A stretch of 64,000 nucleotides of DNA from Anaerolineales bacterium (GTDB taxonomy: Bacteria > Chloroflexota > Anaerolineae > Anaerolineales > RBG-16-64-43). The stretch spans positions 12,066 to 76,065 of the forward strand of contig DAOUDU010000203.1 in NCBI GenBank assembly GCA_034430775.1, in the 5' to 3' direction. Under the pieces are notes generated by a model. That model saw nothing but the letters and a program-made list of their open reading frames with translations, was not told the origin of the DNA and did not search any database. This document shows, in pieces, positions 3,545 through 43,380 of the stretch (position 1 is the first letter of the stretch; each line of letters begins with the position of its first letter). A program made the translations under genes and the position numbers.

Positions 3545-4257
3545 TACGGGGTCGGTGTCACCGTATAGGTCGGGGTAAAGCCGTACGTCGGTGAGATGCG
3601 GGTCGGAACCGGCGTGGCGATCCCCCACCGGCATTTCAACGTCATCCCGACTGAAAGGAAATTGGGATCATCGATCTCGTTGAGCTTGACGATGTCATCC
3701 ACGGTCGACCAGCATTTGGCCGCGATCGTCTCCAGATTGTCGCCGGCCATCACCTGGACGGTGATGATCGTCCCGGGCGCCAGGCTGGAGGGTATTTCGG
3801 TTGGTACGAAACCGGTCCCCGGAGGCGGAATGAGGATGGTCTCGCCGACCTGGAGGTTGTTCGGGTCGAGAGTCGGGTTGAGCGCAACGATCGCCTCGAC
3901 CGAAACACCGCATTTTTCGGCGATCGTGCTGAGGTATTCACCCGACTGCACGGGATATTCCGACGGGCAGTTCGGGGTCGGGGTGATCGTGGGGGTTTCC
4001 GGTGACGCGGTTAAAGTGATCGAAGGCGTGAACCGCAGGGTAGCCTCGATCGTGGGAGTGGGGATCGGTGTCGCCGAAGCCAAAAACGGCAGCGGCAGCG
4101 CCCCCGGCCCTCCGATCCCGATGATCAGAAGGAGGACACCGATGACGACGGCTACGCCGGTCAGCATGCCAAGGAAGAAATTGCCCAATCCTTCACGGCG
4201 CCGCGGGTAAATGCCGGAGACGTCACCAAAATCTTCCGAGTTGTTCAAATCAGACAT
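3544..4257 (-). CDS. Membrane-anchored protein with two LysM domains
   Basis: N-terminal TM helix and a Pro/Thr linker. Two LysM repeats: YPVQSGEYLSTIAEKCGVSVEAIVALNP...VGETILIP and VQVMAGDNLETIAAKCWSTVDDIVKLN...VGMTLKC. Confidence 0.85.
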   Translation of the reverse strand: MSDLNNSEDFGDVSGIYPRRREGLGNFFLGMLTGVAVVIGVLLLIIGIGGPGALPLPFLASATPIPTPTIEATLRFTPSITLTASPETPTITPTPNCPSEYPVQSGEYLSTIAEKCGVSVEAIVALNPTLDPNNLQVGETILIPPPGTGFVPTEIPSSLAPGTIITVQVMAGDNLETIAAKCWSTVDDIVKLNEIDDPNFLSVGMTLKCRWGIATPVPTRISPTYGFTPTYTVTPTP

Positions 4258-4392
4258 TTTCTCCTTCCCTCCGCATCTTCCATTGGGACCTGGGATTGCC
4301 TAAATAAAATTCCGGGTGGTGTGGAAGAACGGATATGAGTATTCTACCGAATTGGCCGGGAATGCGCCACAACCCGAAAAATAGTCTATTTT

Positions 4393-5436
4393 TCAGGCAT
4401 ATTTCCCGTGGATTTTCGCCAAAGCCCATCCTGCGCACTCCTGAAAATCAGGGTTTGGATCATGTGCGGCGGTCTCCAGGAACGGCACCGCCTCCTCCCG
4501 GCGGGTATTCCCGAGTGCGATCAAGAGGTTCCGGCGGTACCCTTCCCGTCCCGCCCGGCGGATTGGACTGCACCGGAATCGTTCCTTCCATTCCTCTTCC
4601 GAAAGCAGGTATTCCCGTCCCATGTCGCGGATTGGGAAGTGGGTCCGCGGAAAAAACGCCGCATCCGCGGCAGCCGGCGCCTTCCGGTTCCACGGACAGA
4701 CGGTTTGGCAGAGGTCGCATCCAAAGATGGCGCGGCCGGTCAGATCGCGGAGGGGCTCGAGGATCGGCCCGCGGTGCTCGATGGTGAGGTAGGAAATACA
4801 GCGGCCCGAATCGATCGTCCGGTCCGGGAGGATGCATCCGGTCGGACAGGCCTGCAGGCACCGGGTACACTTTCCGCAGCGGTCCGCGGAAAACGGCGGA
4901 TCGGGCGGGAGCTCCAGTTCGGTGAGAATTCCCGCGAGAAAGGTGAAGGAACCAAGTGTGGGGTGGATCAGCATGGAATTCCGGCCGATCCACCCCAATC
5001 CGGCGCGCACGGCAATCTCCCGCTCGAGCAGCGGAGCGGTGTCCACGGTCCCGCGGCTCTGCACGCGCCGGCCGGCCAGGCGGTCGATGTATTCGCACAG
5101 CGTACGGAGGCGGGTGCGGATAACCGCATGATAATCGTCGCCGAGCGCGTAGGCCGCGACGACGCCTTCCAGCGGAAAATTTTCGAAGACCGGCGGCGGA
5201 GGGTAGGCGACGGCCAGCATGATGATCGAGCGTGCGGCGGGCAGCAGGCGGGTGGGATCGGCCCGCACGGAAAGCGCGCGTTCCTCCGCCAGGTATCCCA
5301 TCCCGGCGTGGAGACCGGCGGCGACCCAATCATGGAAACGCGGATACTGTTCGGGGGGCGAGGCGGACGTGAACCCGCACAGGACGAAACCCAATTCGAG
5401 TGCCTTATGGCGAATGGCCGCTTTGCAGGATTCCAT
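4393..5436 (-). CDS. queG: tRNA epoxyqueuosine(34) reductase
   Basis: Two 4Fe-4S motifs (CGKCTRCLQACP, CDLCQTVCPWN) and a C-terminal HEAT-like repeat. Overall QueG-like layout. Confidence 0.88.
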   Translation of the reverse strand: MESCKAAIRHKALELGFVLCGFTSASPPEQYPRFHDWVAAGLHAGMGYLAEERALSVRADPTRLLPAARSIIMLAVAYPPPPVFENFPLEGVVAAYALGDDYHAVIRTRLRTLCEYIDRLAGRRVQSRGTVDTAPLLEREIAVRAGLGWIGRNSMLIHPTLGSFTFLAGILTELELPPDPPFSADRCGKCTRCLQACPTGCILPDRTIDSGRCISYLTIEHRGPILEPLRDLTGRAIFGCDLCQTVCPWNRKAPAAADAAFFPRTHFPIRDMGREYLLSEEEWKERFRCSPIRRAGREGYRRNLLIALGNTRREEAVPFLETAAHDPNPDFQECAGWALAKIHGKYA

Positions 5437-5445
5437 CGGGGAAGG

Positions 5446-7155
5446 TTACCAGCCGCTGGCAGAAAAAACTTTGGAAAGAAACCCGGACCGTTCTTCGGGG
5501 GTCATGAATCGCGGCCGGGCGTAATCCACAAACCGGATGGTGAAGAGTTCCACCCCCAGGTACCGCCCCTGATAAAACACATGCCGGTCGATAAAGGCCG
5601 TTTCCGTTTCTTCCTCAAGACCGAACTGATCGAAGAACAGATTGCCCAGTCCGTAATGGATGAATGTTCCGCCGCTGAAATTAAACCCTTGCGGATGGTG
5701 AGCCTGACTTCCGGAGACGATCACGGCTCCGGAATCGGCGATCCATCCGAACTCCTCGGTTTGTTGGAGGGTCGGTTCGTAGTGGTAATACTCAATATAT
5801 TGGAAGGTCATCACCGGCAGATACCCGTCAAACCGCAGGCGGCGGATCTCGCTCCGGAGATATTCGAAATCGCACGGGGCGGCGCCGGGCGTGGTTTCGG
5901 TCGCCCACTCCCCGTTGAAGCCGGGCCGGTTGCAGCCGATGAACGCCAGGCGGTTGCCGTTGTGTTCGACGGTGATCGGCTGCCGGGCGGCGGCTAAATT
6001 CCCGCCGCTGGCGTAGTACTGCCATCCGCGCTGGCGGTATAGGTCCAGTGTATACAGGAGGGCGTCGGCCTTGTAGTCGAGGACGTGATTCCCGGTGAGC
6101 TCGACGATGTCCGTGCCGATATATTCAAGGAGGTCGACATAGCGCGGATCGGAGCAGAAACGGTAGAGGGCCGGGGTGGGGTCCGGCGGCGGGCAGTTCC
6201 GCGCAAAGGGGATTTCGTTGCTGATGTGGGTCAGGTCGGCGGCCTGCAGGAGGGGTCCGATATCCTGCGCCGGATAGGTTATCCCGCGCGCTTCCATGGT
6301 GTAGGCCGTGGCGCGGACCAGCGCGGTCACACCGGTAAGGATCACCGTGGTGAGTTTGGACGGATCGCGGTTCGCCGGTGGGATGATGCCGGCCAGCTCC
6401 CCATCGCACAGTGCCGCATCCCCCAGGCAGGATATCGGCACATTGAGCATGTATCCATCGCGGGTGAAGTCCTTTTGCAGCGGGGATTGCCCATCCAGCG
6501 CAAGGACTTTCCAGCGCGGCTCGACCTCCTCCCAGGGGATGACCGCCCAGGCGGGACGCGCAGACCACGCTGCGTACGTTAATTCCTCCGCGGGGACGAG
6601 CTTCGTCGCACCCGGGGCGGGGATTCCCCACAGGCTTGAAAAAACCATCGCGGTATTCTCATCCATCAGCAGCGGGCGGCTGGAAAACTCCCCGGTTCCC
6701 GCCCCGGACCATGCCGTGCGGAGTTCTTCGCCCGTCACTCCGTCCGTTACGGTCGGGAACGGCGCCACCAGCGCGTACGTCCAGATGGCGAGGGGATGGT
6801 CGTCACCGGGTTGAAGCCGCACAGCGGCTGCTTCCGGTTTGGCGGCGGTCGGCCATCCCTCTGGAAGCTGGAAGGAGGAGAGAAACGATGCCGGCAGCTC
6901 GGGAGAGAACCATACCGAAGGATGGGATTCTGCGGCGTCTGAGGAATTGCCGGCCGTCGGAACCGGCGGATCAGCAGGAACGTTGCCAGGGAGGAAGGGC
7001 GTATTGGTCGCCGAAGGGAGCGGGAGGGCGGGGGAGGCCGCGTCGAGGGTGGATCGGTCGGCGGTTTCTCCACCGGCGGGGGGTGCTGCAGTACACGCCG
7101 CCGGCAGGATTCCCGCGAGGAAGAGGATCCCCAATCCCCGAATGATCCGTTTCAT
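5446..7155 (-). CDS. CapA/PGA_cap-family lipoprotein with an uncharacterised N-terminal domain
   Basis: Start moved to ATG 7155 (MKRIIRGLGILFLAGILPAAC, lipobox-like), which removes the overlap with polA. The C-terminal half resembles the CapA metallophosphatase-like family (VELTGNHVLDY, SGSQAHHPQGF). Confidence 0.7.
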   Translation of the reverse strand: MKRIIRGLGILFLAGILPAACTAAPPAGGETADRSTLDAASPALPLPSATNTPFLPGNVPADPPVPTAGNSSDAAESHPSVWFSPELPASFLSSFQLPEGWPTAAKPEAAAVRLQPGDDHPLAIWTYALVAPFPTVTDGVTGEELRTAWSGAGTGEFSSRPLLMDENTAMVFSSLWGIPAPGATKLVPAEELTYAAWSARPAWAVIPWEEVEPRWKVLALDGQSPLQKDFTRDGYMLNVPISCLGDAALCDGELAGIIPPANRDPSKLTTVILTGVTALVRATAYTMEARGITYPAQDIGPLLQAADLTHISNEIPFARNCPPPDPTPALYRFCSDPRYVDLLEYIGTDIVELTGNHVLDYKADALLYTLDLYRQRGWQYYASGGNLAAARQPITVEHNGNRLAFIGCNRPGFNGEWATETTPGAAPCDFEYLRSEIRRLRFDGYLPVMTFQYIEYYHYEPTLQQTEEFGWIADSGAVIVSGSQAHHPQGFNFSGGTFIHYGLGNLFFDQFGLEEETETAFIDRHVFYQGRYLGVELFTIRFVDYARPRFMTPEERSGFLSKVFSASGW

Positions 7156-7183
7156 GTTAATCGCATATGCGCAAATGCCTGGA

Positions 7184-9952
7184 TTACTCCGCTGTGGGTT
7201 CCACGATTTGCATCTCCTCCCAATTTTCCCCCTGTTTGGCGTCGGCAATCAGCGGCACGCTGAGCGACAGGACGCCTTCCATGATCTGCCGCACGATTCG
7301 TGCCGCCCGCGGGATTTCCGACACGGGGCAGTCGAAGACCAGTTCGTCGTGCACCTGCAGGATCATCCGGGCATCCAGGCCGGCCTGTGCCAGCACATCC
7401 GGCAGCCGGATCATGGCGATCTTCATGATGTCGGCGGCCGAACCCTGGACCGGGGCGTTGATCGCTTCGCGCTCCGCGCGGTTGCGGGCATTCACATCCA
7501 ACCTTGCGGTCGGGCCGAGTTCCGGGAAATAACGGCGTCGGCCGAGCATGGTCTCCACAAAACCCTGCCGGGCGGCGAGGCGTTTGGTATTTTCCACAAA
7601 GTCACGAATGCCCGAAAACCGCTCGAAGTAGGTTTCGATGAATTTTGTCGATTCAGCCAGTGTCATCTCGGTGGAGCGGGTGAGGCCGAAGGCGGTCTGG
7701 CCGTAGAGCAGCCCGAAGTTGACCGCCTTGGCATGCCGTCGCATTGCGGGAGTAACCTCTGTCAGCGGCACGCCGTACACCGCCGCCGCCGTTGCGGCGT
7801 GGATATCCTCGCCGCGGCGGAAGGCTTCGGTCATGCCCGGGTCCTTTGCCATATGCGCCGCCAGGCGCAGCTCGATCTGGGAATAATCGATCGCAAGCAG
7901 CCGGCGGCCGGAAGAGCCGATGAACGCGCGGCGGATCCGCCGGCCCTCCTCGGTCCGGGTCGGGATGTTCTGTAGATTCGGATCCGAGGAGGAAACCCTT
8001 CCCGTGACGGTTCCGGTCTGGTTATAGGAGGTGTGCACGCGGCCGGTAACAGGGTTAATTTCATCGTGCAGCGAGATGACATACGTAGAAAGCAGTTTGG
8101 AAAGTTCGCGGTGCCTGCGGATCATCTCCACCACCGGATGCTGGCCGACCATGCTGTCGAGGACGTCCGCGGCGGTGGAATATTTTCCGGCCGCGGTTTT
8201 GCGCGTTTTATCCGGCGGCTGCAATTGCAGCTGGCCGAAGAGTGCATCCGCCAGCTGTTGGGTGGAATTAAGATTAAGGGGCCGGCCGACCAGCGCTTGC
8301 ACATCGGTTTCGATTTTCCGAAGTTCGGTTTGGAAATCGTCGCCCAATTTGGATAGGTACGACAGATCCAGGGCGATGCCTTCCTGCTCCATCGCGGCCA
8401 GGACCGGAATCAGCGGCATTTCCATTTCTTCGAACATCTTGGTCTGGCTGCGCTCTTCCAGTTCCTTCCGCAGCGGAGCGACCAGGCGCAACGTGACGTC
8501 CGCGTCGGCCGCGGCGTAGGGCGCCGCCTGGGTTGCGGGCACGCGGTCCATCGTGATCTGCTTCGCGCCTTTGCCGATCAGCGCCGCGATCGGAGTCATC
8601 TCCACTCCCAGTCGGACGAATCCGAGGTCCTTCAACCCGAGGCTGCGCGAAGCGGGATTGCACAGCCATTCGGCGATCATCGTATCGAACGCCGGCGCGG
8701 AGATCGGCAACCCGGCCCGGGCGAGGATCGTCAGGTCGTATTTGATGTTATGGCCGGCTTTTGGAATGCGGGGGTCGGCCAGTATCGCGCCGAGGCCCCT
8801 TTTCACTGCGCCAAGGTCAAGATTGGGGCCGTCTGCATGGCGCAACGGCAGATAGAAGCCTTCGCCCTCTGCAATGGAGAAGGACATCCCGACCAGTTCG
8901 GCGCGCATCGGATCGGTCGAGGTGGTCTCGGTATCCAGTGCCAGGACCGGCGCGCTGGAAATTTTCTCCACCAGGGCCGCCAGTTTTTCTTCATCATCGA
9001 TCAGATGCCAGCGGCCCGGTTCCGGGCGCGGTCTTGCCTCGGCGAACATTCCCAATTGAACGCCGGAGGCTTCCGGAGCGGGCAGGCGCGAGAGCAGGGT
9101 GCGGAACTCGAGAGTCTGGAACAACGCGGCGACTTCCGCGCGGACATACTGTCCCGCCCGGCAGGCCTCGAGCGCTATGTGCACCGGGGCGTTGGTTCGG
9201 ATGGTGGCCAGGTTGCGCGAGAGGAGCGCGCTTTCCCGCCCGGCTTCCAGCTTGGTGCGGTAGCGGGCCGGGATGTTTTCCATATTCTCGTAGATCGAAT
9301 CGAGCGAGCCGTATTGCTGGAGCAGCCCGGTCGCCGTCTTCTCGCCGACGCCCGGAACGCCGGGAATGTTATCGGATTTATCCCCGACCAGCGCTTTGTA
9401 ATCAATCAATTGGAGCGGCGGGAATCCCCACTCCTCCGTGAACCGGGCGGCATCGTAATCGGTGGAATCCGAGAGCGAGCGGCCCGGCAGGCGGACCGAG
9501 ACTTTGTCGTCGATGAGCTGCAAGAGATCGCGGTCGCCGCTGAGGATGAGCGTGTCGGTGCCTTCTGTGGCCGCCTGGCGCGCGACCGTGCCCAGCACGT
9601 CGTCGGCCTCGAAACCTTCGGCTTCCAGGACCGGGATGCGGAACGCGCGGACCACCTCGCGGATACGGTCGATTTGAGGCCGCAGGTCCTCGGGCATTTT
9701 GGCGCGTGTGGCTTTGTACTCGGGATATAAATCGTCGCGGAATGTGCGCCCGGTGTCGAAGGCGACCGCCAAGTACTGGGGTTTGTCTTTTTCCAGAAGC
9801 GATAGCAGGATGGAGGTAAAGCCGTATGTGCCCGCCGTCGGTTCACCCTGCGCCGTAATCCAGCGGCTGGCCTGCGTGCCGGCGGCGGTCAGGGCGAAGT
9901 AGGCGCGGTAGGCGAGGGCATGTCCGTCGAGCAGATAAATTTTAGGAGTCAT
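7184..9952 (-). CDS. polA: DNA polymerase I
   Basis: 5'-nuclease N-terminus (IYLLDGHALAYRAYFA). Family A motifs DYSQIELR, KAVNFGLLYG and QVHDELVF. Start set at ATG 9952 (MTPKIYLLDG); the track's 36-codon N-terminal extension lies inside the upstream gene. Confidence 0.95.
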   Translation of the reverse strand: MTPKIYLLDGHALAYRAYFALTAAGTQASRWITAQGEPTAGTYGFTSILLSLLEKDKPQYLAVAFDTGRTFRDDLYPEYKATRAKMPEDLRPQIDRIREVVRAFRIPVLEAEGFEADDVLGTVARQAATEGTDTLILSGDRDLLQLIDDKVSVRLPGRSLSDSTDYDAARFTEEWGFPPLQLIDYKALVGDKSDNIPGVPGVGEKTATGLLQQYGSLDSIYENMENIPARYRTKLEAGRESALLSRNLATIRTNAPVHIALEACRAGQYVRAEVAALFQTLEFRTLLSRLPAPEASGVQLGMFAEARPRPEPGRWHLIDDEEKLAALVEKISSAPVLALDTETTSTDPMRAELVGMSFSIAEGEGFYLPLRHADGPNLDLGAVKRGLGAILADPRIPKAGHNIKYDLTILARAGLPISAPAFDTMIAEWLCNPASRSLGLKDLGFVRLGVEMTPIAALIGKGAKQITMDRVPATQAAPYAAADADVTLRLVAPLRKELEERSQTKMFEEMEMPLIPVLAAMEQEGIALDLSYLSKLGDDFQTELRKIETDVQALVGRPLNLNSTQQLADALFGQLQLQPPDKTRKTAAGKYSTAADVLDSMVGQHPVVEMIRRHRELSKLLSTYVISLHDEINPVTGRVHTSYNQTGTVTGRVSSSDPNLQNIPTRTEEGRRIRRAFIGSSGRRLLAIDYSQIELRLAAHMAKDPGMTEAFRRGEDIHAATAAAVYGVPLTEVTPAMRRHAKAVNFGLLYGQTAFGLTRSTEMTLAESTKFIETYFERFSGIRDFVENTKRLAARQGFVETMLGRRRYFPELGPTARLDVNARNRAEREAINAPVQGSAADIMKIAMIRLPDVLAQAGLDARMILQVHDELVFDCPVSEIPRAARIVRQIMEGVLSLSVPLIADAKQGENWEEMQIVEPTAE

Positions 9953-33758: not shown

Positions 33759-36560
33759 CTATCGTTTGAAAAACTCATCCACCGAGAAACCCCACTGTGT
33801 GTGAATCGTCCGCGGATCATATTGGTTGGCGCGCAGCCATCGGTGCAACGCGCGGGCCTGTTCTTCGCGGGTAAGATCCTTCCCCGGACGGAATCCCTCG
33901 TCGTCCATGCGCGCTTCACAGATCGGGCACTGCGACACCTGAAACGGATAAGTGATCGGAGTCGGCGGGCGGCTCACCGCCAGACGGAATCCGCAATGGG
34001 CGCAGGGTGTAAACGTTCCCCCTCCTTCCGGGCTTTCCGGCTTTTGAAACACTTCAAGGAAGTCGCGGGGCGGGCTTTCGGTTTTTCGTAAATGCCGGTC
34101 CAATCCCCAGAAGATGATGGAACCAAATATCCCGAGTGCCGCCGCCATCCCGCCCAGCCACGGCAGGAGCGAGCCCCAGGCGTCGTACCGGATTTCCACA
34201 TGGTGCGATCCGGCGGGGAGAGCGATCCGAATTAAATTGTCCCGCACCCCCAAACCGACCTTCACGCCGTCGATAGTCGCGCGCCAGCGGGGATGATACG
34301 TGTAAGAGATGAGCGCCGAGACCGGCCCGGCGGAGGCGTAATCGAAAGCCAGGCCGTCGGCGGATTCGGAATACGCCTGCAGAGGGACGGACGGCCATTC
34401 GAGGGTTGTGGATACCGGAATATCCTGAAGGATGATGGCGCGGATGTACTGGCGCAGAGCGCTCTGGCCTGTCAGCTGTGTGTAATACAGCAGGTTTCCA
34501 CCGATAAACCATACCCTGCCCTGACCAACGTCCTTATACCCGAGGACGGGATAGGAAGCCCCGTCCCGGTCCATTACCGCCACGATGGTATCCAATCCTT
34601 CATACGATGCTCCGGACCATCCTTCCTCGAGCAGGCCGGAGAAATGCAATTGCGCAGGCAGGTTTGCCGACGGGTCGGACCAGCGCAATGTCATCCGGTC
34701 GTCGAAGGCAAGCCGGAATGCGTGCACGCCGAAGAAATCCAATGTGCGCCCGAAGATATCCTCCATTCCGCTTAAGTCCACAACGATTGTCCCGCCGCCG
34801 TTGAGGTAGTTGCGCAGGATATCCTCGGTCTGCTTTACATCCACTGAATCCCCGGCGAACCGGTAGAAACCAAGGATGGGATACTCCGTCAGAGCACCGG
34901 ACTGCTCGCGGATGAACATATCGGGTGACGCTTCTTCGGCGAATGGAAATGCCGTCAGGAAGGGAGCCAGCCCGTCGCCGACGAGAAGCATGTTCTGAGC
35001 CGGGAGTTCCTGCACCCGTGCCGAAGGCGCGATCCTGCGCCAAAGCTCATACCGCCCGATGACTCCCGCCCGGTCGAATCCCATTCCCGATACGGCTTCG
35101 CGTGCCGGGTCCGCTTCGACGCCGCCCGCAATCACCGCCATACGCACATCCCAGCGGGCGAACAACGCCTCCAGATATTCCGGCCCCCACTCCGGCGCGG
35201 AAAGCACCCGGCGCAGGGCGACATGATGCGGCGTATTTTCCAGCGCCCAGCCGTTGATCAGGGGCGAGGCTTTCCCGGCGAAATACACCTCCAGCGAGGT
35301 CGGTTCCGGGTAGGTCAGCAGCGCGACCCGACCGCCGTCCGGCGCGGATACAGCCTCAAGCACGGCCTGCTCCTGCGGGTATCCGCCGCCGGGGATGATC
35401 CGTGCGGCCGGGACCAGCTCCACCGCAACCAGAATCACCAGCAGCAACGACCGGATCCAACGCAGGTTGCGCCCCATCGGGAGCAATCCGGCGGCGGCGA
35501 CGGGAATCGCGAATGCGGAGAAATTGACAAACCGTTCCGGGAGGAGCTGGTTGTTTAGGGGGATGAGATTAAAGAATACCCCGTCGGGGCCGAGGGAGAA
35601 CATGATTGCGAGCAGCCCGGTCAGATACCACGCGCTCCGGTGCGGATCGGGCCGGGCGGCGATCGCGAGCAGCCCGATCAGCAGCGACCCGAAACCGAAC
35701 AGGATCTGCCCGTGCGTGAGATCCAGGTAGGGAAGGAAGCCCTCCAGCGTGGAGGAGAACAACGGGATCTTTTCGGCGGGGAGGAACGGAACGTTAGCCA
35801 GTTCCGCGCGGCTGTATGCCGGGAGAAGCCAGGGCGCGGCGAACAAAGCTCCCAAGACAACGGAGCCCACCCACGGAGCCAATTGGTACAACGGAACTTC
35901 AGGGTCGAGGATCAACCGAAGGATGAGGTAGAAACCGATGCCGATGGCGAAGATCACCGCCTGTTGCGGATGGGACAGAATAGCCCACGTCCAGCACAAG
36001 CCGAGGAGTATTGTGATCGGCGCGCGGCGCGAGTTCGGGACGAGCAGGCGATCTGTCAGCAGTGCGATGGCCGGAAGCGCAAGCAGGCAGAGCATGCGCG
36101 GCAGATTCCCCTCGAAGAAAACCGTGCGCATTTGATACGGCGCGCCGACCGCGAGCACGGTCCCGAGAAAAGCCGCCCAGCGATTCCAGGCCCGGTCCAG
36201 GTAGGCAAAAGTGAGGCCGGAGAAGCCGACCAGGAACAGGGAGATTAAGATACGAAGCGCAATATCGCCATTTTGGGTGAGGTAAACCAGCGGCGCCAGT
36301 ACGAGGGTTGTCAGCGGCGGGTAATACGTGAGGAACGGATCCCCCATATACCAATTCGGCATCCAGGCGGCGCGGAAATAAGCGCCGGCACCTTCCGTGC
36401 CCATGATGCCTGCGAGGTACTCCGCCCGAAACAGATGCCCCCAGGTATCGGCACCGCGCGGCGAACCCGCAGTCCAGACTCCAACCAGCGCGAGAAGGAT
36501 AAAAAAAGCGACCAGGAGGACTGGCAGCACCTGGTCGCGAAAGGCGTGCTGGGGTTTCAC
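33759..36560 (-). CDS. Large polytopic membrane protein (GT-C/YfhO-like by architecture) with a C-terminal zinc ribbon
   Basis: 933 aa with a GTG start 1 nt after the GT2 stop. More than 12 N-terminal TM helices, a large extracytoplasmic middle and one late TM helix, then CAHCGFRL...CPICEARM. The family call is by architecture only. Confidence 0.55.
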   Translation of the reverse strand: MKPQHAFRDQVLPVLLVAFFILLALVGVWTAGSPRGADTWGHLFRAEYLAGIMGTEGAGAYFRAAWMPNWYMGDPFLTYYPPLTTLVLAPLVYLTQNGDIALRILISLFLVGFSGLTFAYLDRAWNRWAAFLGTVLAVGAPYQMRTVFFEGNLPRMLCLLALPAIALLTDRLLVPNSRRAPITILLGLCWTWAILSHPQQAVIFAIGIGFYLILRLILDPEVPLYQLAPWVGSVVLGALFAAPWLLPAYSRAELANVPFLPAEKIPLFSSTLEGFLPYLDLTHGQILFGFGSLLIGLLAIAARPDPHRSAWYLTGLLAIMFSLGPDGVFFNLIPLNNQLLPERFVNFSAFAIPVAAAGLLPMGRNLRWIRSLLLVILVAVELVPAARIIPGGGYPQEQAVLEAVSAPDGGRVALLTYPEPTSLEVYFAGKASPLINGWALENTPHHVALRRVLSAPEWGPEYLEALFARWDVRMAVIAGGVEADPAREAVSGMGFDRAGVIGRYELWRRIAPSARVQELPAQNMLLVGDGLAPFLTAFPFAEEASPDMFIREQSGALTEYPILGFYRFAGDSVDVKQTEDILRNYLNGGGTIVVDLSGMEDIFGRTLDFFGVHAFRLAFDDRMTLRWSDPSANLPAQLHFSGLLEEGWSGASYEGLDTIVAVMDRDGASYPVLGYKDVGQGRVWFIGGNLLYYTQLTGQSALRQYIRAIILQDIPVSTTLEWPSVPLQAYSESADGLAFDYASAGPVSALISYTYHPRWRATIDGVKVGLGVRDNLIRIALPAGSHHVEIRYDAWGSLLPWLGGMAAALGIFGSIIFWGLDRHLRKTESPPRDFLEVFQKPESPEGGGTFTPCAHCGFRLAVSRPPTPITYPFQVSQCPICEARMDDEGFRPGKDLTREEQARALHRWLRANQYDPRTIHTQWGFSVDEFFKR

Positions 36561-36561
36561 G

Positions 36562-38010
36562 TCAGCCCGCCCAAAACTCCATAAAATTCCGCAGCCATCC
36601 GTTTACTTTCCCTTCTCCGGGCAACCGCAACTTGTCCATCCATCCCGCGGAAGCCGTCCAGCGCGGCGGTTCGGTGAGAGTCTTCAGGTTTCCACTCATC
36701 CGGAAAAAGTATACTACCATCCGGTAGAGGGGCAGTAGCGGAAGAAAGACCAGCGAATTGCGCAGGATGCGGCGTTCACTGGGAGCGCAGATGCTCCACG
36801 CCGCCGCGATCTGTGCGGCATCGGCCAGAATGTACAATCCGTAGATGAGCGCCATCGCCTGAACCACCATTGCCAGACTGTATCCGAGCAGCGGGAACAT
36901 CGGCAGCAGGAAGATCCAGATCAGCCGCAGGAATCCCATCGTGTGGTCACGCTGCAGACGGCGCGGGAGTCCGCGCTGCCAGATTCGTTTCTTGCTGCCG
37001 AACATGTCATAATGCACGGCCAGCGCCTCCAGTTCCCCGCGCTGCCAACGCACCCGCTGGGCGAATAACGCCCGCCAGCTTTCGGTGGGCGCAAGGTGAA
37101 TGCGCACCTGCGGCAGGTATGTCACCCGCCCCGGAAAGCGCTGAAGGGTGAGGGTGGCGTCGGTATCCTCCGAGACGGTCCGGCCGCGGTACCCGTGGAT
37201 CGCCTGCAGGGCGCCGCGGCGGTAGATCGCGCAGGCGCCCGAAAGGGTGAACAACTCGTTGCGCAGGGCTTCCGCGTGGCGGCCGATTCGGAAGGATTGG
37301 AAATATTCGATGAACTGGGCCGTGGCGAGGAAATTTTCCATCACGCTCAACTTCATCGGGACCGGCATATCGTCCCGGTCGAGGTGGATGTGCCCGTCCC
37401 CGTCGTTCTCCACCAGCAGGTCGCGGTCGATGATCAGGTGGGCCGTGGCCGCCACCAGGTCCGGATCGCGCTGGAAGGCGATCACCGCCTGCTGGATCGC
37501 CTCGGGTTCGAGGACGGCGTCGGAATCGATGGTGAAGATCAGATCGCCGCGGCAGTGCTGCAGCCCGGTGTTGACCGCGGCGGGTTTTCCCTTATGGTCG
37601 CCATGCAGGAGCGTCATGACGCCGCCGAATTCGAGCGCGGGGATGACGCGGTTATACAGCCGGATGTGCCCGTTCCAGTGCGGTGAACCGTTGATATGGC
37701 CGTTGACCACTTCCTCGGTCCGGTCGGTGGATCCGTCATTGACGATGAGGATTTCTATCTTCTCGTGCGGGTAGGTCTGGGCTTTAAGCGAGGTGATACA
37801 GCGGTCGATGTTGAGCTGCTCGTTATGGGCCGGGATGATGATCGAGATTTTCGGCAGGGGGGGTTTTAACAGCGGCGGGAACAGCTTGGCGAGCCGGCCG
37901 TTGCGCCATACAAGCAGTGCGTCCCACAACGCCTGGCCGATATCCGCCGCCAGCGGAATAAGGATCCACACTCCCCACAGAATCAGAAAATCCACACCGT
38001 ACGAACCCAT
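36562..38010 (-). CDS. Processive family-2 glycosyltransferase (polysaccharide synthase-like)
   Basis: Start at ATG 38010 (MGSYGV). ISIIIPAHNE, NDGSTDRT, DSDAVLEP, SEDTDATL and QRVRWQRG (QxxRW), flanked by TM helices. Confidence 0.85.
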   Translation of the reverse strand: MGSYGVDFLILWGVWILIPLAADIGQALWDALLVWRNGRLAKLFPPLLKPPLPKISIIIPAHNEQLNIDRCITSLKAQTYPHEKIEILIVNDGSTDRTEEVVNGHINGSPHWNGHIRLYNRVIPALEFGGVMTLLHGDHKGKPAAVNTGLQHCRGDLIFTIDSDAVLEPEAIQQAVIAFQRDPDLVAATAHLIIDRDLLVENDGDGHIHLDRDDMPVPMKLSVMENFLATAQFIEYFQSFRIGRHAEALRNELFTLSGACAIYRRGALQAIHGYRGRTVSEDTDATLTLQRFPGRVTYLPQVRIHLAPTESWRALFAQRVRWQRGELEALAVHYDMFGSKKRIWQRGLPRRLQRDHTMGFLRLIWIFLLPMFPLLGYSLAMVVQAMALIYGLYILADAAQIAAAWSICAPSERRILRNSLVFLPLLPLYRMVVYFFRMSGNLKTLTEPPRWTASAGWMDKLRLPGEGKVNGWLRNFMEFWAG

Positions 38011-38024
38011 TCGCAGCCTCGAAT

Positions 38025-38627
38025 CTACAATGCCGTCCGCCGGGTCACTTCCAGTTCCCGGCGAATCATGGTGAGCGTCGGCAGGGTCAGCATCCGCCAA
38101 TAGAGGTAGAGTACGCCGACGAAGAAGACCAGCCGTCCGACAATCGCATGCGCCCACGGTACGATCGGTTTGCCGAAGGTCGCGACCATCACGATGATGA
38201 CCGCCAGCCGGACGAGATTGATCAGGATGGTGGCCGCCACGCCGACGGCCATCCGCCCCAGCCGTTCGTGCGCCGGAAGGCGCGGGTAAAAAAGCATCAG
38301 TCCGGCGAAGATCGCGATCTCGATCAGCGCCGAGCATTCGATCCCGACCCGCAGGATCGACCAGCCCGTCGGATCGGGCACGACCAGGCCGCCGCCTTGC
38401 ACCATTTGCAGCGGGCCGCCGAAGAGCTGGCTGATCAGTACCAGGAACCAGACCTGCAGGGTTCCCAGCGGCTCATTCCACTGTCCAAGCTGGCCGGCGA
38501 AAATGATGATCGTCGCCAGGCCGAATGCGCCCCAGAGATAGCCGGTCAGGCCTTTGTGCGCTTTACGCAGGAGAAGTAACCCGGCCAGATAGACCGCGGA
38601 GAAGATGGACAATGCCAGCGGACTCAC
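38025..38627 (-). CDS. Exosortase/archaeosortase-family protein (small, about 200 aa)
   Basis: GTG start overlaps the upstream stop (GTGA). Polytopic. Cys in GIECSALIE, Arg 42 residues later in INLVRL and His 20 residues later in WAHAIVGR, the ordered Cys/Arg/His of this family. Confidence 0.7.
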   Translation of the reverse strand: MSPLALSIFSAVYLAGLLLLRKAHKGLTGYLWGAFGLATIIIFAGQLGQWNEPLGTLQVWFLVLISQLFGGPLQMVQGGGLVVPDPTGWSILRVGIECSALIEIAIFAGLMLFYPRLPAHERLGRMAVGVAATILINLVRLAVIIVMVATFGKPIVPWAHAIVGRLVFFVGVLYLYWRMLTLPTLTMIRRELEVTRRTAL

Positions 38628-39121
38628 CCGCGGATCCTTTCCAGCACAGGTTCGAATGCCTTGCGCCGGCGCCAAAATCCGAAAAGAAGCACCCCCACCA
38701 TCACAACCGTCAATCCCCAGCCCAGGGTGGGGACGAAATGCACCGTGGTCGTTCTCGGACCGGCGATGTTGCAGTTTTGAGCGTTGCCTGTGCTCCAGCA
38801 GATGCTGATGGTGTAATCCCCTTCGGGCCAGTCGGTATTGACCGTTTCCCACTGGTCGTTGCGGGTTTCATACGCACTCATAGGGGACTGGCTGGTGGTG
38901 TGGGTGGCATATACCGTGCCTCCCAGCGCAATCGTGTAGTACAAATTGGACGGGCCGATTTTCGAGTCGGTATAAATCGTCGATTGGACGGTTACCGGAG
39001 TGTTTGGTGCCCAGCCCCCCCAGGCATTTAATGTAAAGATGCTTCCCGCGGCCAGAACCCTGCCCGGGAAAGCTGCAGCTGATATGGAGAGAAGCAAGGC
39101 AAATGAAATTATTTTTCGCAT
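38624..39121 (-). CDS. Small secreted protein with a C-terminal sorting-signal-like tail (VPTLGWG, TM, RRRK)
   Basis: Signal peptide MRKIISFALLLSISAAAFPGRVLAAG. About 110-aa Thr/Ser/Asn-rich beta domain. The tail is FVPTLGWGLTVVMVGVLLFGFWRRRKAFEPVLERIRG. Confidence 0.6.
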   Translation of the reverse strand: MRKIISFALLLSISAAAFPGRVLAAGSIFTLNAWGGWAPNTPVTVQSTIYTDSKIGPSNLYYTIALGGTVYATHTTSQSPMSAYETRNDQWETVNTDWPEGDYTISICWSTGNAQNCNIAGPRTTTVHFVPTLGWGLTVVMVGVLLFGFWRRRKAFEPVLERIRG

Positions 39122-39334: not shown

Positions 39335-40648
39335 ATGAAAGAAGAAGGTAATTATCCTTTATCAGCCATGACCGGATCTTCACGAATCCCAGGATTCCAT
39401 AAAAAAACGATTAAGGAACGCCGGCAGGCGCTCATCGACGGCGGCTGGCTGGATTCGTCGAGTGCGCCAATCCTGGACCGCGGCGGGATCGATCCCGAAC
39501 TCGCCGACCGGATGATCGAAAATGTCGTCGGAATATTTTCGTTTCCCCTGGGGATCGCCACCAACTTCCTGATCAACGGACGCGAGGTCCTGGTCCCGAT
39601 GGTGGTGGAAGAGCCTTCGGTTGTGGCGGGGGCATCCTTCATGGCCCGGCTGGTCCGGGAGGGCGGCGGATTTTCCGCCGAGGCCGACGAACCGGAAATG
39701 ATCGGACAGATTCAAATCCTGGATTTACCGGATTTGCCGGCGGCGGAAAAGGCGCTGCTCGCGCAAAAGGTTGAAATCCTGGCCGAGGCCGGGGAGGCCG
39801 ATCCGGTCCTGGCGCGGGCGGGGGGCGGGCCCCGGGATCTAAAAGTCCGCAAAATCGATTCCCCGCTGATCGGGTCCTTCCTCGTCCTGCATCTGATTCT
39901 TGACGTGCGGGATGCCATGGGCGCCAACGCGGTCAACACTGCCTGTGAGCGGATCGCGCCGCGCATCGAGCGGATCACCGGCGGGCGGGTCCGGTTGCGG
40001 ATCCTTTCGAATTTGGCGGACCGGCGGCTGGCACGCGCGCGGTGTTCCGTGCCGGTCCATGCGCTGGCCTTCGAAGGCTGGAGCGGCGACGCCGTGCGGG
40101 ATGGGATCCTCGAAGCATACGCATTCGCCGCGGCAGATCCGCACCGCGCGGCGACGCACAACAAGGGAATCATGAACGGGGTGGACGCGGTGGTCCTCGC
40201 CACCGGCAACGATTGGCGGGCGGTGGAGGCCGGGGCGCACGCATTTGCCGCGCGCAACGGAACGTACACCTCGCTTTCGAAATGGAAACAGGACGGTGTG
40301 GGGAACTTGGCGGGCTTTTTGGAACTCCCCATGGCGGCGGGAATCATCGGCGGCGCCACGCGGGTGCACCCGGCCGCCCGGGCGGCACTAAAAATTCTCG
40401 GTGTGCATACCGCGCGCGAACTGGCCGAAGTAATCGTCTCGGTCGGGCTGGCGCAGAATTTGGCGGCGCTTCGCGCGCTGGCCACCGAAGGGATCCAGCA
40501 GGGACATATGCGCCTGCATGCGCGCCAGATGGCAATCGCCGCCGGTGCCAGCGGGGAGGCGGTGGATCAGATCGCCGGGCGGATGGTGGCGGAGAAAGCG
40601 GTTCGCACCGACCGTGCGGAAGAATTGGTCAATCGGTTGCGGAAGTGA
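39335..40648 (+). CDS. Class II HMG-CoA reductase
   Basis: [49 protein letters not shown] and the length (437 aa) are typical of class II enzymes. Confidence 0.92.
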
Positions 40649-40652
40649 CGGA

Positions 40653-41747
40653 ATGACGGACATTACCCCAACGGAGAAAACTCCTCGTATCGGAGCCCCG
40701 ATTATGCGGCCGGCGCGCAGCGCAGGTATCATCGGTTACGGCGCCTACGTCCCGCGCTTCCGACTGCCCGGCAAGGAAATTTCCCGCGTCTGGACCGAGG
40801 GCAATACGCCGCCGCCCGTCGCCGAAAAATCGGTTCCGGGGCTGGACGAGGACGTCATCACCATGGCGATCGAGGCGGCGCGCAACGCGCTGGCCCGGGC
40901 CGGGACGGCCCCGGCCGAAATCAGGGCGGTGTGGGTCGGATCGGAATCCCATCCGTATGCGGTGAAGCCTTCCTCCTCCGTCGTCGGCGAGGCCATCGGC
41001 GCTTCTCCCAACCTCCTGGCGGCGGATTGGGAATTCGCCTGTAAGGCCGGAAGCGAAGCAATGCAGGCCGCGATCGGCATGGTCGGATCCGGCATGATCC
41101 GTTACGCGCTCGCCATCGGAATGGACACGGCCCAGGGCCGGCCGGGCGACGCGCTGGAATACACCGCCGGCGCGGGCGGCGGGGCGTTCCTGATCGGACC
41201 GGCGGAGGACGCGCTGGCCGTGATCGAAGCCTCATATTCCTACGCAACCGACACGCCGGATTTCTGGCGGCGTGATCATGCGCAGTATCCGTCGCACGGC
41301 CAGCGCTTCACGGGCGAACCCGCCTACTTCCGGCATGTGACGCACGCCGCGCGGGCGCTGCTCGAAGGCACCGGCGCCCAGCCCGCGGATTTCCGCTTCG
41401 CCGTATTCCACCAGCCCAACCCGAAGTTCCCGCAGCGGGCGGCGGCGATGCTCGGTTTTACGAAGGAACAAATTCAGGCGGGCATGCTCTCGCCGCAGAT
41501 CGGGAACACCTATGCCGGCTCGGCGCTGATCGGCTTGACGGCTGTGCTCGACCAGGCCGCACCCGGAGACCGCATCCTGGTGGTGTCGTTCGGATCGGGC
41601 GCGGGTTCGGATGCGTTCCAGCTCACCGCCACGGAAAAGCTGCTGGAGCGGCGGTTGCGTGCCCCGCGCACCACCGATTACATTTCGCGCCGCAAGGAAA
41701 TCGATTACGGCGTATATGCACGCTTCCGGGGAAAACTGAAAATGTAA
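40653..41747 (+). CDS. HMG-CoA synthase, short archaeal-type
   Basis: [14 protein letters not shown]. Catalytic Cys context [13 protein letters not shown], plus [10 protein letters not shown] and [12 protein letters not shown]. Confidence 0.85.
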
Positions 41748-41801
41748 CCCCTCCCTAACCCTCCCCAAATCCCTCTGGGATTTGGGGAGGGAAGGGTGGG
41801 G
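41748..41801. repeat. C-tract/G-tract hairpin (family 2) between the HMGCS and DUF35 genes
   Basis: CCCCTCCCTAACCCTCCCCAAATCCC TCTG GGATTTGGGGAGGGAAGGGTGGGG. Confidence 0.6.
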
Positions 41802-41819
41802 TACGAAAGGAGTCGAAAC

Positions 41820-42221
41820 ATGGATATCACCAGACATTGGAGGTTGCGCCGGCAGCGTTACGCGCTCGAAGGCGAACGATGCGTTCACTGCCGGGAATAC
41901 ATCTTCCCGCCGCGGGATATCTGCCCGCATTGCGGCGAGGAAGCGGGCCCGTTGCATACCATGAGCGGCCAGGGCGAAGTGTATTCCTTCACCGTCGTCC
42001 ATGACCCACCGACCGGGTATGAAGCCCAGGCGCCGTACGCCGTCGCGCTGGTGAAGCTCGCGGAAGGGCCGCTGATCACCGCCCAGCTGACCGATGTCGA
42101 CGCCGCCGATATAAAAATCGGCATGCCGGTGGAGATGGTCACGCGCCGCCTGCGGACCGACGGGCCGGAAGGCGTGATTCAGTACGGCTACAAATTCCGT
42201 CCGCACCTTGCCGTTTCCTGA
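41820..42221 (+). CDS. DUF35 zinc-ribbon/OB-fold protein (thiolase-HMGCS scaffold type)
   Basis: CVHCREYIFPPRDICPHCG zinc ribbon followed by an OB-fold-like segment (VYSFTVVH...ALVKLAEGPLITAQL). AAAGGAG RBS. Confidence 0.8.
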   Translation: MDITRHWRLRRQRYALEGERCVHCREYIFPPRDICPHCGEEAGPLHTMSGQGEVYSFTVVHDPPTGYEAQAPYAVALVKLAEGPLITAQLTDVDAADIKIGMPVEMVTRRLRTDGPEGVIQYGYKFRPHLAVS

Positions 42222-42225
42222 TCCC

Positions 42226-43380
42226 ATGCGCGAAGTCATCGTTCTTGGGATAGGCCAAACCCGGGTCGAAGAACACTGGGAGCGTTCGCTGCGGGATCTC
42301 GCCACCGAGGCGGGCCTGGCGGCGATGCGCGACGCCGGTGTGGACCGGATCGACGCTGTGTTCGTAGGCAACATGCTTTCCGGCCAGATCGCCCATCAGG
42401 AGAACCTGGGGGCGCTGGTTGCCGATTGGATGGGGCAGCGCGGGGCGGAAGGTTTCAAAGTGGAAGCCGCCTGCGCCTCCGGGGCGGCGGCGTTCCGGGC
42501 GGCGTTTCTGGCCGTGGCATCCGGGGCGCTGGACGCGGTCCTGGCCGTCGGCGTGGAAAAAATGACCGAGACATCAGGCTCGGAGACGACCGCCGCCCTC
42601 GCGTCCGCCGCCGACGCGGATTTCGAAAGCGTACAGGGGATCACCTTCGTCGGCTTGAACGCGCTGATCATGCGCCGCTACCTGCATGCGTTCGGATGGA
42701 AGCACACCGACTTCGGGGAATTTTCGATCAACGCGCACGCCAACGGGGCGCGCAACCCAAACGCCCGTCTGCGTCAACCGATTACCGAGCGGGATTACGC
42801 CCGGGCGCGGATGATCTGCGAACCGATTAACCTCCTGGATGCCTCACCTATCGGTGACGGTGCGGCGGCCGCGTTGCTGCTCCCGGCGGATAAAGTGGCG
42901 GGGGGCCCGCGCCCGCGGATTAAAATCGCCGGTTCCGCCGCGGCAACCGACTCGCTGGCTGTACATGACCGCAAGGATCCACTTTTTCTCTCCGCAGCAC
43001 ATTTGGGCGCGCGGCGCGCCTTTGCCCAGGCGGGTGTTACGCCCGGGGAGATCGATTTTTTTGAGTTGCACGACGCCTTCAGCATTCTGGCCGCAATGTC
43101 GCTTGAAGCGTGCGGCTTCGCCGAACGCGGGCAGGGGCCGCGGATGGCGCTCGATGGCGCGATCCGGCTCGATGGAAAATTGCCCATCTGCACCCAGGGT
43201 GGATTGAAGGCGCGCGGCCATCCGGTCGGCGCCACCGGGATGTATCAGATCGTCGAGACGGTCCAGCAGTTGCGGGGTGAAGCGGGGGAAAACCAGCTTT
43301 CCAAAGCGCGGATCGGCCTGGCGCAGAACATCGGCGGGTCGGGCGCTTCCATTTTTACGCACATTCTGAAAGCGGAATAA
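42226..43380 (+). CDS. Thiolase (acetyl-CoA acetyltransferase), archaeal-type
   Basis: Catalytic Cys VEAACASGAAAF, plus ELHDAFSI, GGLKARGHPVGATG and NIGGSGAS. Confidence 0.88.
   Translation: MREVIVLGIGQTRVEEHWERSLRDLATEAGLAAMRDAGVDRIDAVFVGNMLSGQIAHQENLGALVADWMGQRGAEGFKVEAACASGAAAFRAAFLAVASGALDAVLAVGVEKMTETSGSETTAALASAADADFESVQGITFVGLNALIMRRYLHAFGWKHTDFGEFSINAHANGARNPNARLRQPITERDYARARMICEPINLLDASPIGDGAAAALLLPADKVAGGPRPRIKIAGSAAATDSLAVHDRKDPLFLSAAHLGARRAFAQAGVTPGEIDFFELHDAFSILAAMSLEACGFAERGQGPRMALDGAIRLDGKLPICTQGGLKARGHPVGATGMYQIVETVQQLRGEAGENQLSKARIGLAQNIGGSGASIFTHILKAE

Follow-up and report, generated by a model that had tools for sequence, protein, structure and literature searches.

A V-P-x-x-G-tailed small protein as the likely dedicated target of an XrtG-like exosortase in Anaerolineales

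Is a small protein with a signal peptide and a tripartite C-terminal tail the substrate of the membrane enzyme encoded next to it? The question is raised by a locus in the assembly of an Anaerolineales bacterium (GCA_034430775.1), of which a stretch of 64,000 nt was analysed (contig DAOUDU010000203.1, positions 12,066 to 76,065 of the forward strand; hereafter the window, whose own numbering is used below). A minus-strand gene at 38624..39121 encodes a protein of 165 amino acids that combines a signal peptide, a beta-sandwich domain and a candidate sorting tail, and its stop codon overlaps the start of a gene for a member of the exosortase/archaeosortase family. From the comparisons that follow we consider it likely that this XrtG-like exosortase, whose gene lies immediately downstream, has the 165-amino-acid protein as its single dedicated target. 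This reading is carried by the anatomy of the protein, the conservation of its tail, the strict adjacency of the two genes, their natural fusions and the assignment of the four genes of the cassette to families.

The tail of the 165-amino-acid protein

The open reading frame (ORF), signal peptide and tail given in the original prediction match the sequence exactly, the region that it had singled out (38624-38740) running from residue H128 through the stop codon. The signal peptide occupies residues 1–24 (MRKIISFALLLSISAAAFPGRVLA; 39050..39121) and consists of MRK, a hydrophobic core and a VLA/A site, a layout that is kept across orthologues as judged by inspection and by an AlphaFold2 helix at residues 2–17. 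The mature, predicted extracytoplasmic domain (residues 25–129; 38735..39049) is modelled as a seven-strand beta-sandwich and contains two invariant cysteines, C108 and C117; the signal peptide and this pair of cysteines would fit an exported domain. The AlphaFold2 model, built with 23 homologues, has a mean predicted local distance difference test (pLDDT) score of 82.7, with values of 86–95 over residues 31–130, and places a low-confidence linker after the N-terminal helix, then the seven strands and then a C-terminal helix at 134–156. Foldseek matched the domain only to generic Ig-like and carbohydrate-binding sandwiches at TM scores of 0.4–0.56, among them the Wzt carbohydrate-binding domain and accessory domains of GH3 and dextranase proteins.

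The tail begins 36 residues before the C-terminal end with the motif VPTLGWG (residues 130–136; 38714..38734), whose core V130-P131-x-x-G134 was delimited from alignments; the motif also recurs in fused forms of the protein. It continues with a hydrophobic, predicted membrane-spanning stretch of 14 residues (LTVVMVGVLLFGFW; 137–150; 38672..38713) that falls within the modelled C-terminal helix, followed by the basic cluster RRRK (151–154; 38660..38671) and an extension of 11 residues, AFEPVLERIRG (155–165; 38627..38659).

The protein has 37 homologues, each unnamed and each from an Anaerolineales-type metagenome bin. In 23 aligned orthologues (43–90% identity), V130, P131, L133, G134 and W135 are invariant, as are the two cysteines of the mature domain; the six positions VPTLGW are invariant or nearly so, and the basic cluster keeps R153 in every sequence and R152 in nearly every one. 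At more distant loci V, P and G alone are invariant (18/18 aligned tails) and motif positions 3, 4, 6 and 7 vary (T/S/A, L/M/V/A, W/P/V/A/K/G). In these 18 tails V-P-x-x-G is followed by about 15 hydrophobic residues and then an arginine cluster, the length of the hydrophobic stretch being constant throughout. VPTLGWG had been put forward as the conserved block; this holds for V, P and G and fails for the four variable positions, and by alignment the conserved core is V-P-x-x-G rather than the whole heptad. The tripartite layout of motif, helix and basic cluster had also been noted, and its retention in both the 23 orthologues and the 18 distant tails is not a matter of chance.

A regular expression written for the tail matched once per locus, each match lying just upstream of the exosortase gene, and had zero matches elsewhere in the 356,726 bases of the examined loci, read in six frames. 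The sole exception was the archaeal locus L027, described below, which was missed because its basic end falls outside the pattern. A protein search with a profile of the 18 tails, using the tail alone, returned only three fragments of 43–57 amino acids and was a weak test.

Linkage to the exosortase gene and natural fusions

A homologous small protein is encoded directly upstream of the exosortase in 29/29 loci examined, which come from metagenome-assembled genomes (MAGs) of Anaerolineales/Chloroflexota and, in one case, of Methanomicrobia. When one genome per GTDB species was scanned, 20 loci were obtained, 19 in Anaerolineales/Chloroflexota MAGs and one in the Methanomicrobia MAG, and in all 20 the tailed small protein lies immediately upstream of the exosortase gene. 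The gene order target, exosortase, family 2 glycosyltransferase (GT2) and PF10131 membrane protein is found in the window and in loci L001, L002, L007, L008 and L027, the PF10131 protein being the fourth gene of each complete locus. Close relatives share their flanking genes and therefore their synteny by itself proves little; L007 and L008, however, have exosortases that are 55–57% identical and lie in unrelated flanks, yet all four genes occur in the same order. L027 (Methanomicrobia MAG JAGLWR010000014.1, 1082..5946) harbours a full four-gene cassette with an exosortase of about 35% identity, a 4-nt overlap and a target tail of the form SVPSLG-helix-RMSR, a finding that suggests either inter-domain transfer of the module or an error of binning. 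In L007 the gene just upstream of the target gene (5993..7255) encodes a 420-amino-acid SdrD_B-domain protein without a V-P-x-x-G tail.

The features by which Haft (2023) recognises a dedicated tripartite signal are present together at this locus: a conserved motif near the C-terminus; a strongly hydrophobic helix followed by 2–5 basic residues (in the window LTVVMVGVLLFGFW and RRRK); a signal peptide; and consecutive genes. The earlier proposal that the protein may be the cognate substrate of the adjacent enzyme is supported by the 29/29 adjacency, the invariant motif and the natural fusions; the processing itself we infer.

Fusions of the two proteins came to light in a profile search run exhaustively over 1.84 billion representative proteins; it returned only 204 relatives, and many of these carry additional sequence fused to the exosortase domain. 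The target domain, with the motif [SV][VI]P-x-[LI]-G, is joined to the exosortase domain in at least 11 representative clusters. The N-terminal part of these proteins ends in W-x-x-x-N-x-x-F-P...T-T-x-F-x-S-V-P-x-L-G, as in the window target, and the exosortase follows; some fused relatives read SVPTLGEW at the motif. A metagenome scan using the fused forms gave a single locus, L029, whose DNA holds an uninterrupted fusion ORF of 694 amino acids, then a GT2 gene and then a gene for a protein of the GT-C family PMT_2. This dolichyl-phosphate-mannose protein mannosyltransferase-like protein (3673..6012) occupies the place of the PF10131 protein, a substitution that hints at a GT-C-type glycosyltransferase as the large membrane protein of these cassettes. 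An analogous fusion is seen in Firmicutes-type XrtG sequences, for which NCBIfam holds a model named 'XrtG N-terminal extension domain'.

A different architecture was seen in representative proteins P0174, P0176, P0181, P0186 and P0190, in which the exosortase domain comes first and is followed by an extra membrane helix and an extension of 170–470 amino acids. Some of these proteins terminate in a helix and basic cluster of their own, and Pfam had no match in the C-terminal extensions.

The enzyme, its cassette and related sorting systems

The enzyme is encoded at 38025..38627 on the minus strand, with its true start at GTG 38627 and a length of 200 amino acids. It had been described as sortase-like; it belongs instead to the exosortase/archaeosortase family, passing the family models TIGR04178 (52.4 bits, cutoff 23) and PF09721 (Exosortase_EpsH; 33.7 bits, cutoff 25.7). 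Its best specific model is TIGR03110 (XrtG) at 74 bits, which falls short of the cutoff of 102.75 but exceeds the next exosortase model (43 bits) by more than 30 bits. Relatives of the enzyme score 73–94 bits on TIGR03110, compared with 182–268 bits for Firmicutes-type XrtG sequences. A Cys, an Arg and a His are suspected of being the family's catalytic triad (Haft 2023 preprint); Cys98 (38334..38336), Arg140 (38208..38210) and His160 (38148..38150) of the window enzyme are invariant in 16 relatives, and the E-C-S motif is present in 119/119 close homologues.

Downstream on the same strand lies the membrane GT2 gene (36562..38010), whose start was set at ATG 38010, giving 482 amino acids, because of the lengths of its orthologues and an upstream GAGG. 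The program-made ORF list was over-long for both this gene (36562..38337, 591 amino acids) and the exosortase gene (38025..38852, 275 amino acids), each on the minus strand. The GT2 protein scores 236 bits on TIGR03111, the model for XrtG-associated glycosyltransferases, against a cutoff of 364 (236–295 bits across loci); it also scores 113 bits on PgaC, Pfam detects GT2 domains in it, and its closest solved structures are BcsA cellulose synthases. The fourth gene (33759..36560, minus strand) encodes a polytopic membrane protein of 933 amino acids that matches PF10131 (PTPS_related) at 130 bits (cutoff 26.4) and YfhO weakly; a sequence search of the PDB with this protein gave no match. It is probably a GT-C-type glycosyltransferase.

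The closest known counterpart is the XrtG system of Firmicutes, a complete example of which in Lactiplantibacillus plantarum consists of a Firmicu-CTERM protein, an exosortase and two associated glycosyltransferases (PMC12854382). The two systems agree in the order and content of their four genes, in the position of the target gene beside the enzyme gene, in having TIGR03110 and TIGR03111 as the best specific models for enzyme and GT2, and in the occurrence of target–enzyme fusions in both clades. They differ in that the window enzyme and GT2 both lie under the cutoffs of those models (74 versus 102.75 bits and 236 versus 364 bits respectively); in hosts, which are here Chloroflexota and one archaeon rather than Firmicutes; and in the motif, which in the Firmicutes-type sequences examined reads [VI]-G-[LS]-[ST]-[ST]-x-P by comparison with V-P-x-x-G here. 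The Firmicu-CTERM model TIGR04145 (cutoff 50 bits) matched neither the window target nor the L027 target, and scored 96.6 bits on the positive control P0258. Homology of the target domains was also sought by hhalign between 32 Chloroflexota-type and five Firmicutes-type sequences and rejected (probability 0.15%). At the level of sequence, then, the enzymes and glycosyltransferases of the two systems are homologous and the targets have no detectable homology.

Neither the target protein nor its tail is recognised by any model in NCBIfam or Pfam, the full-length protein having no NCBIfam match at E<=1. When tails alone were scanned at E<=10 against curated C-terminal sorting models, IPTL-CTERM, PEP-CTERM, MYXO-CTERM, LPXTG, GlyGly-CTERM, Heimdall-CTERM and Loki-CTERM stayed below cutoff for every tail but one, and none was consistent across the family. 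The exception is the tail of orthologue P0037, which scores 16.2 bits on LPXTG_anchor (cutoff 15.9) at profile positions 18–34, a match to the helix and basic end that leaves out the LPXTG motif. PEP-CTERM TIGR02595 reached at best 9.6 bits, on one orthologue tail (cutoff 16), and did not match the window tail. The description of the tail as a new sorting signal is therefore apt for the signal, which no model recognises, and less so for the type of system, which is known from XrtG and Firmicu-CTERM.

Other sorting systems share parts of this arrangement. Archaeosortase A (ArtA) and PGF-CTERM of Haloferax volcanii combine a homologous enzyme with a tripartite signal whose motif abuts the helix, as here, and for ArtA removal of the helix coupled to attachment of a new anchor has experimental support, with Cys173, Arg214 and Arg253 found critical by mutagenesis. 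The ArtA system differs in being one-to-many, in its motif, in its lipid acceptor and in having no glycosyltransferase cassette. In the JDVT-CTERM/myxosortase system there is, as here, one co-operonic target per enzyme, recognised by a conserved two-gene neighbourhood, although the enzyme is of an unrelated protease family (CPBP/Rce1-like) and the motif relies on an invariant Cys. PEP-CTERM and XrtA involve the same enzyme superfamily and are tied to exopolysaccharide loci, with many targets per genome, in which they differ.

A dedicated exosortase–target pair in an XrtG-type cassette is therefore already known as a kind of system. New are the V-P-x-x-G motif, a target domain without detectable Firmicu-CTERM homology, hosts among the Chloroflexota with one archaeon, and the placement of these proteins under the curated cutoffs of the specific models; among the papers that could be searched, none pairs exosortases with Anaerolineae. 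The known scheme is extended to new phyla and nothing is overturned. Exosortase systems are widespread, yet few enzyme–substrate pairs have been defined, and this clade offers a clean pair of one enzyme and one target with a clear motif, natural fusions and four genes in a compact module that appears to have crossed between Chloroflexota and an archaeon. It is a convenient case for asking what the enzyme cleaves and what the protein becomes attached to. The tails and the enzyme clade could also yield two new annotation models for proteins that currently carry the names 'hypothetical protein' and 'exosortase/archaeosortase family protein'.

Processing, alternative readings and translational coupling

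If the 165-amino-acid protein is the dedicated target, it would be exported by Sec through its N-terminal signal peptide. Its C-terminal helix would then anchor it in the membrane; with the arginines clustered on the cytoplasmic side, V-P-x-x-G would sit at the outer boundary of the membrane. The polytopic exosortase, with Cys98, Arg140 and His160, would recognise V-P-x-x-G and remove the helix, and by analogy with archaeosortase A would probably transfer the beta-sandwich domain of about 105 residues to another anchor. The presence of the GT2 and the GT-C-like protein suggests the involvement of a glycan, as acceptor, decoration or ligand; the co-transcribed BcsA/PgaC-like GT2 and its GT-C-like partner would most likely make or attach a glycan that is joined to the target, decorates it or is bound by it.

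A more far-reaching version, which we regard as doubtful, makes the cassette a self-contained protein–glycan conjugation module that yields a protein-capped or protein-primed exopolysaccharide, with the exosortase acting about once per molecule. Where target and exosortase are fused, the exosortase would act in cis, and where they are split its substrate would be a partner co-translated in stoichiometric amounts; the beta-sandwich domain would be joined to a glycan from the BcsA/PgaC-like synthase and the GT-C-like enzyme. If true, this would define the role of XrtG-type systems in monoderm bacteria and some archaea.

Several points weigh against a dedicated target that is cleaved and transferred. 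That the tail is cleaved and the domain transferred is argued by analogy with ArtA and XrtA, and literature searches found no experimental study of XrtG function. All sequences derive from metagenome bins, and the count of one target per genome covers about 12–20 kb around each locus. Ser (nine) or Thr (one) replaces the Cys of E-C-S in about 10 of some 120 representative XrtG-like relatives, which could be serine-nucleophile variants or else inactive forms; representative proteins P0158, P0199, P0205, P0211 and P0217 are examples of such substitutions. In the fused forms, moreover, the segments that follow the motif, helix and basic cluster, correspond to the first transmembrane helix and first cytoplasmic loop of the enzyme itself, and in several fusions a linker of 10–25 residues separates motif from helix, a layout that a stable, uncleaved association would fit equally well.

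Such an association would make the small protein an accessory subunit that stays anchored in the membrane permanently, perhaps as a glycan-binding module, and works uncleaved in a complex with an exosortase-like protein and a glycan synthase, V-P-x-x-G serving as a structural hinge at the membrane's surface. Attachment of the domain directly to the first transmembrane helix of the enzyme implies 1:1 stoichiometry, as translational coupling implies 1:1 production; the Ser and Thr substitutions in some relatives point the same way, as does a fold resembling carbohydrate-binding sandwiches such as the Wzt domain, at the modest TM scores given above. We nonetheless judge a permanent subunit to be unlikely, since V, P and G are invariant exactly at the position of a C-terminal signature motif while adjoining residues vary; since Cys, Arg and His are kept in 119/119 close relatives and about 110/120 representatives, with Ser remaining a possible nucleophile in others; and since experimentally studied members of the family such as ArtA remove helices of this kind. 

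Less probable still is an exosortase that serves many targets across the genome, the small neighbour being one among these or simply a membrane protein that happens to be encoded nearby. XrtA, ArtA and many other exosortases are one-to-many, and loci rather than whole genomes were scanned here; but the genes adjoin at all 29 loci and overlap, the pair moves as a unit into differing flanks and an archaeon, target and enzyme are fused in several lineages, 357 kb yielded no second tail, and annotation of the Firmicutes counterpart gives a four-gene cassette in which the target gene stands beside the XrtG gene. It is least credible that the tail is an ordinary IPTL-CTERM domain, processed by whichever enzyme handles IPTL-CTERM proteins. 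The IPTL-CTERM signature is IPTL-x-EWG, and the two signals have in common the tripartite layout and a motif start of [IV]-P-T-L; the model TIGR04174 aligns to the window tail from profile position 1, and the SVPTLGEW of some fused relatives comes near the signature. The window tail, however, reaches 11.4–12.8 bits where the cutoff is 20.5, and other tails of the family give 8.8 bits or no hit; the core shared across the family is V-P-x-x-G and lacks the E-W-G part; and taxa and gene context differ, an IPTL-CTERM tail having been reported in the unrelated context of a surface-layer protein of Methylomirabilis. The resemblance to IPTL-CTERM noted in the original prediction is thus real at the start of the motif, but it is sub-threshold and not family-wide.

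The residues that follow the basic cluster in the window target had been called an unusual 11-residue extension overlapping the start of the enzyme gene. The extension is real and carries the coupled GTG: the target stop TGA (38624-38626) and the exosortase start GTG (38625-38627) share a 4-nt GTGA overlap at 38624..38627. It is, however, a feature of the lineage and of variable length, with no residues after the basic cluster in L027, 11 in the window and about 18 in L007; an aromatic residue is common two or three positions past the cluster (18 tails). ATGA or GTGA overlaps of 4 nt join target and exosortase genes in 22/25 unique loci, and a GGAG, GAGG or AGGA tetramer lies within 25 nt upstream of the exosortase start in 17/24 unique loci, Shine-Dalgarno-like examples being GGAAAGGA in the window (38635..38642, inside the extension) and GGAGG in many other loci. 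As this site lies inside the tail, the codons that specify '...LERIRG' or '...ALEAA' also provide the exosortase gene with its ribosome-binding site. The extension is on this evidence best read as a coupling region, accounted for in large part by the ribosome-binding site and start, and not as a component of the sorting signal; with both elements in the tail of the target, target and enzyme would therefore be made together. Extensive gene overlap was considered as the cause of the extension and rejected, the overlap being only 4 nt.

Scans for promoters and terminators around the cassette gave results no better than shuffled sequence. Divergent from the cassette on the plus strand is an archaeal-style mevalonate block (39335..43380) that encodes a hydroxymethylglutaryl-CoA (HMG-CoA) reductase, an HMG-CoA synthase-like protein, a DUF35/zf-ChsH2 OB-fold protein and a thiolase; these neighbours recur in L001, L002, L004 and L006.

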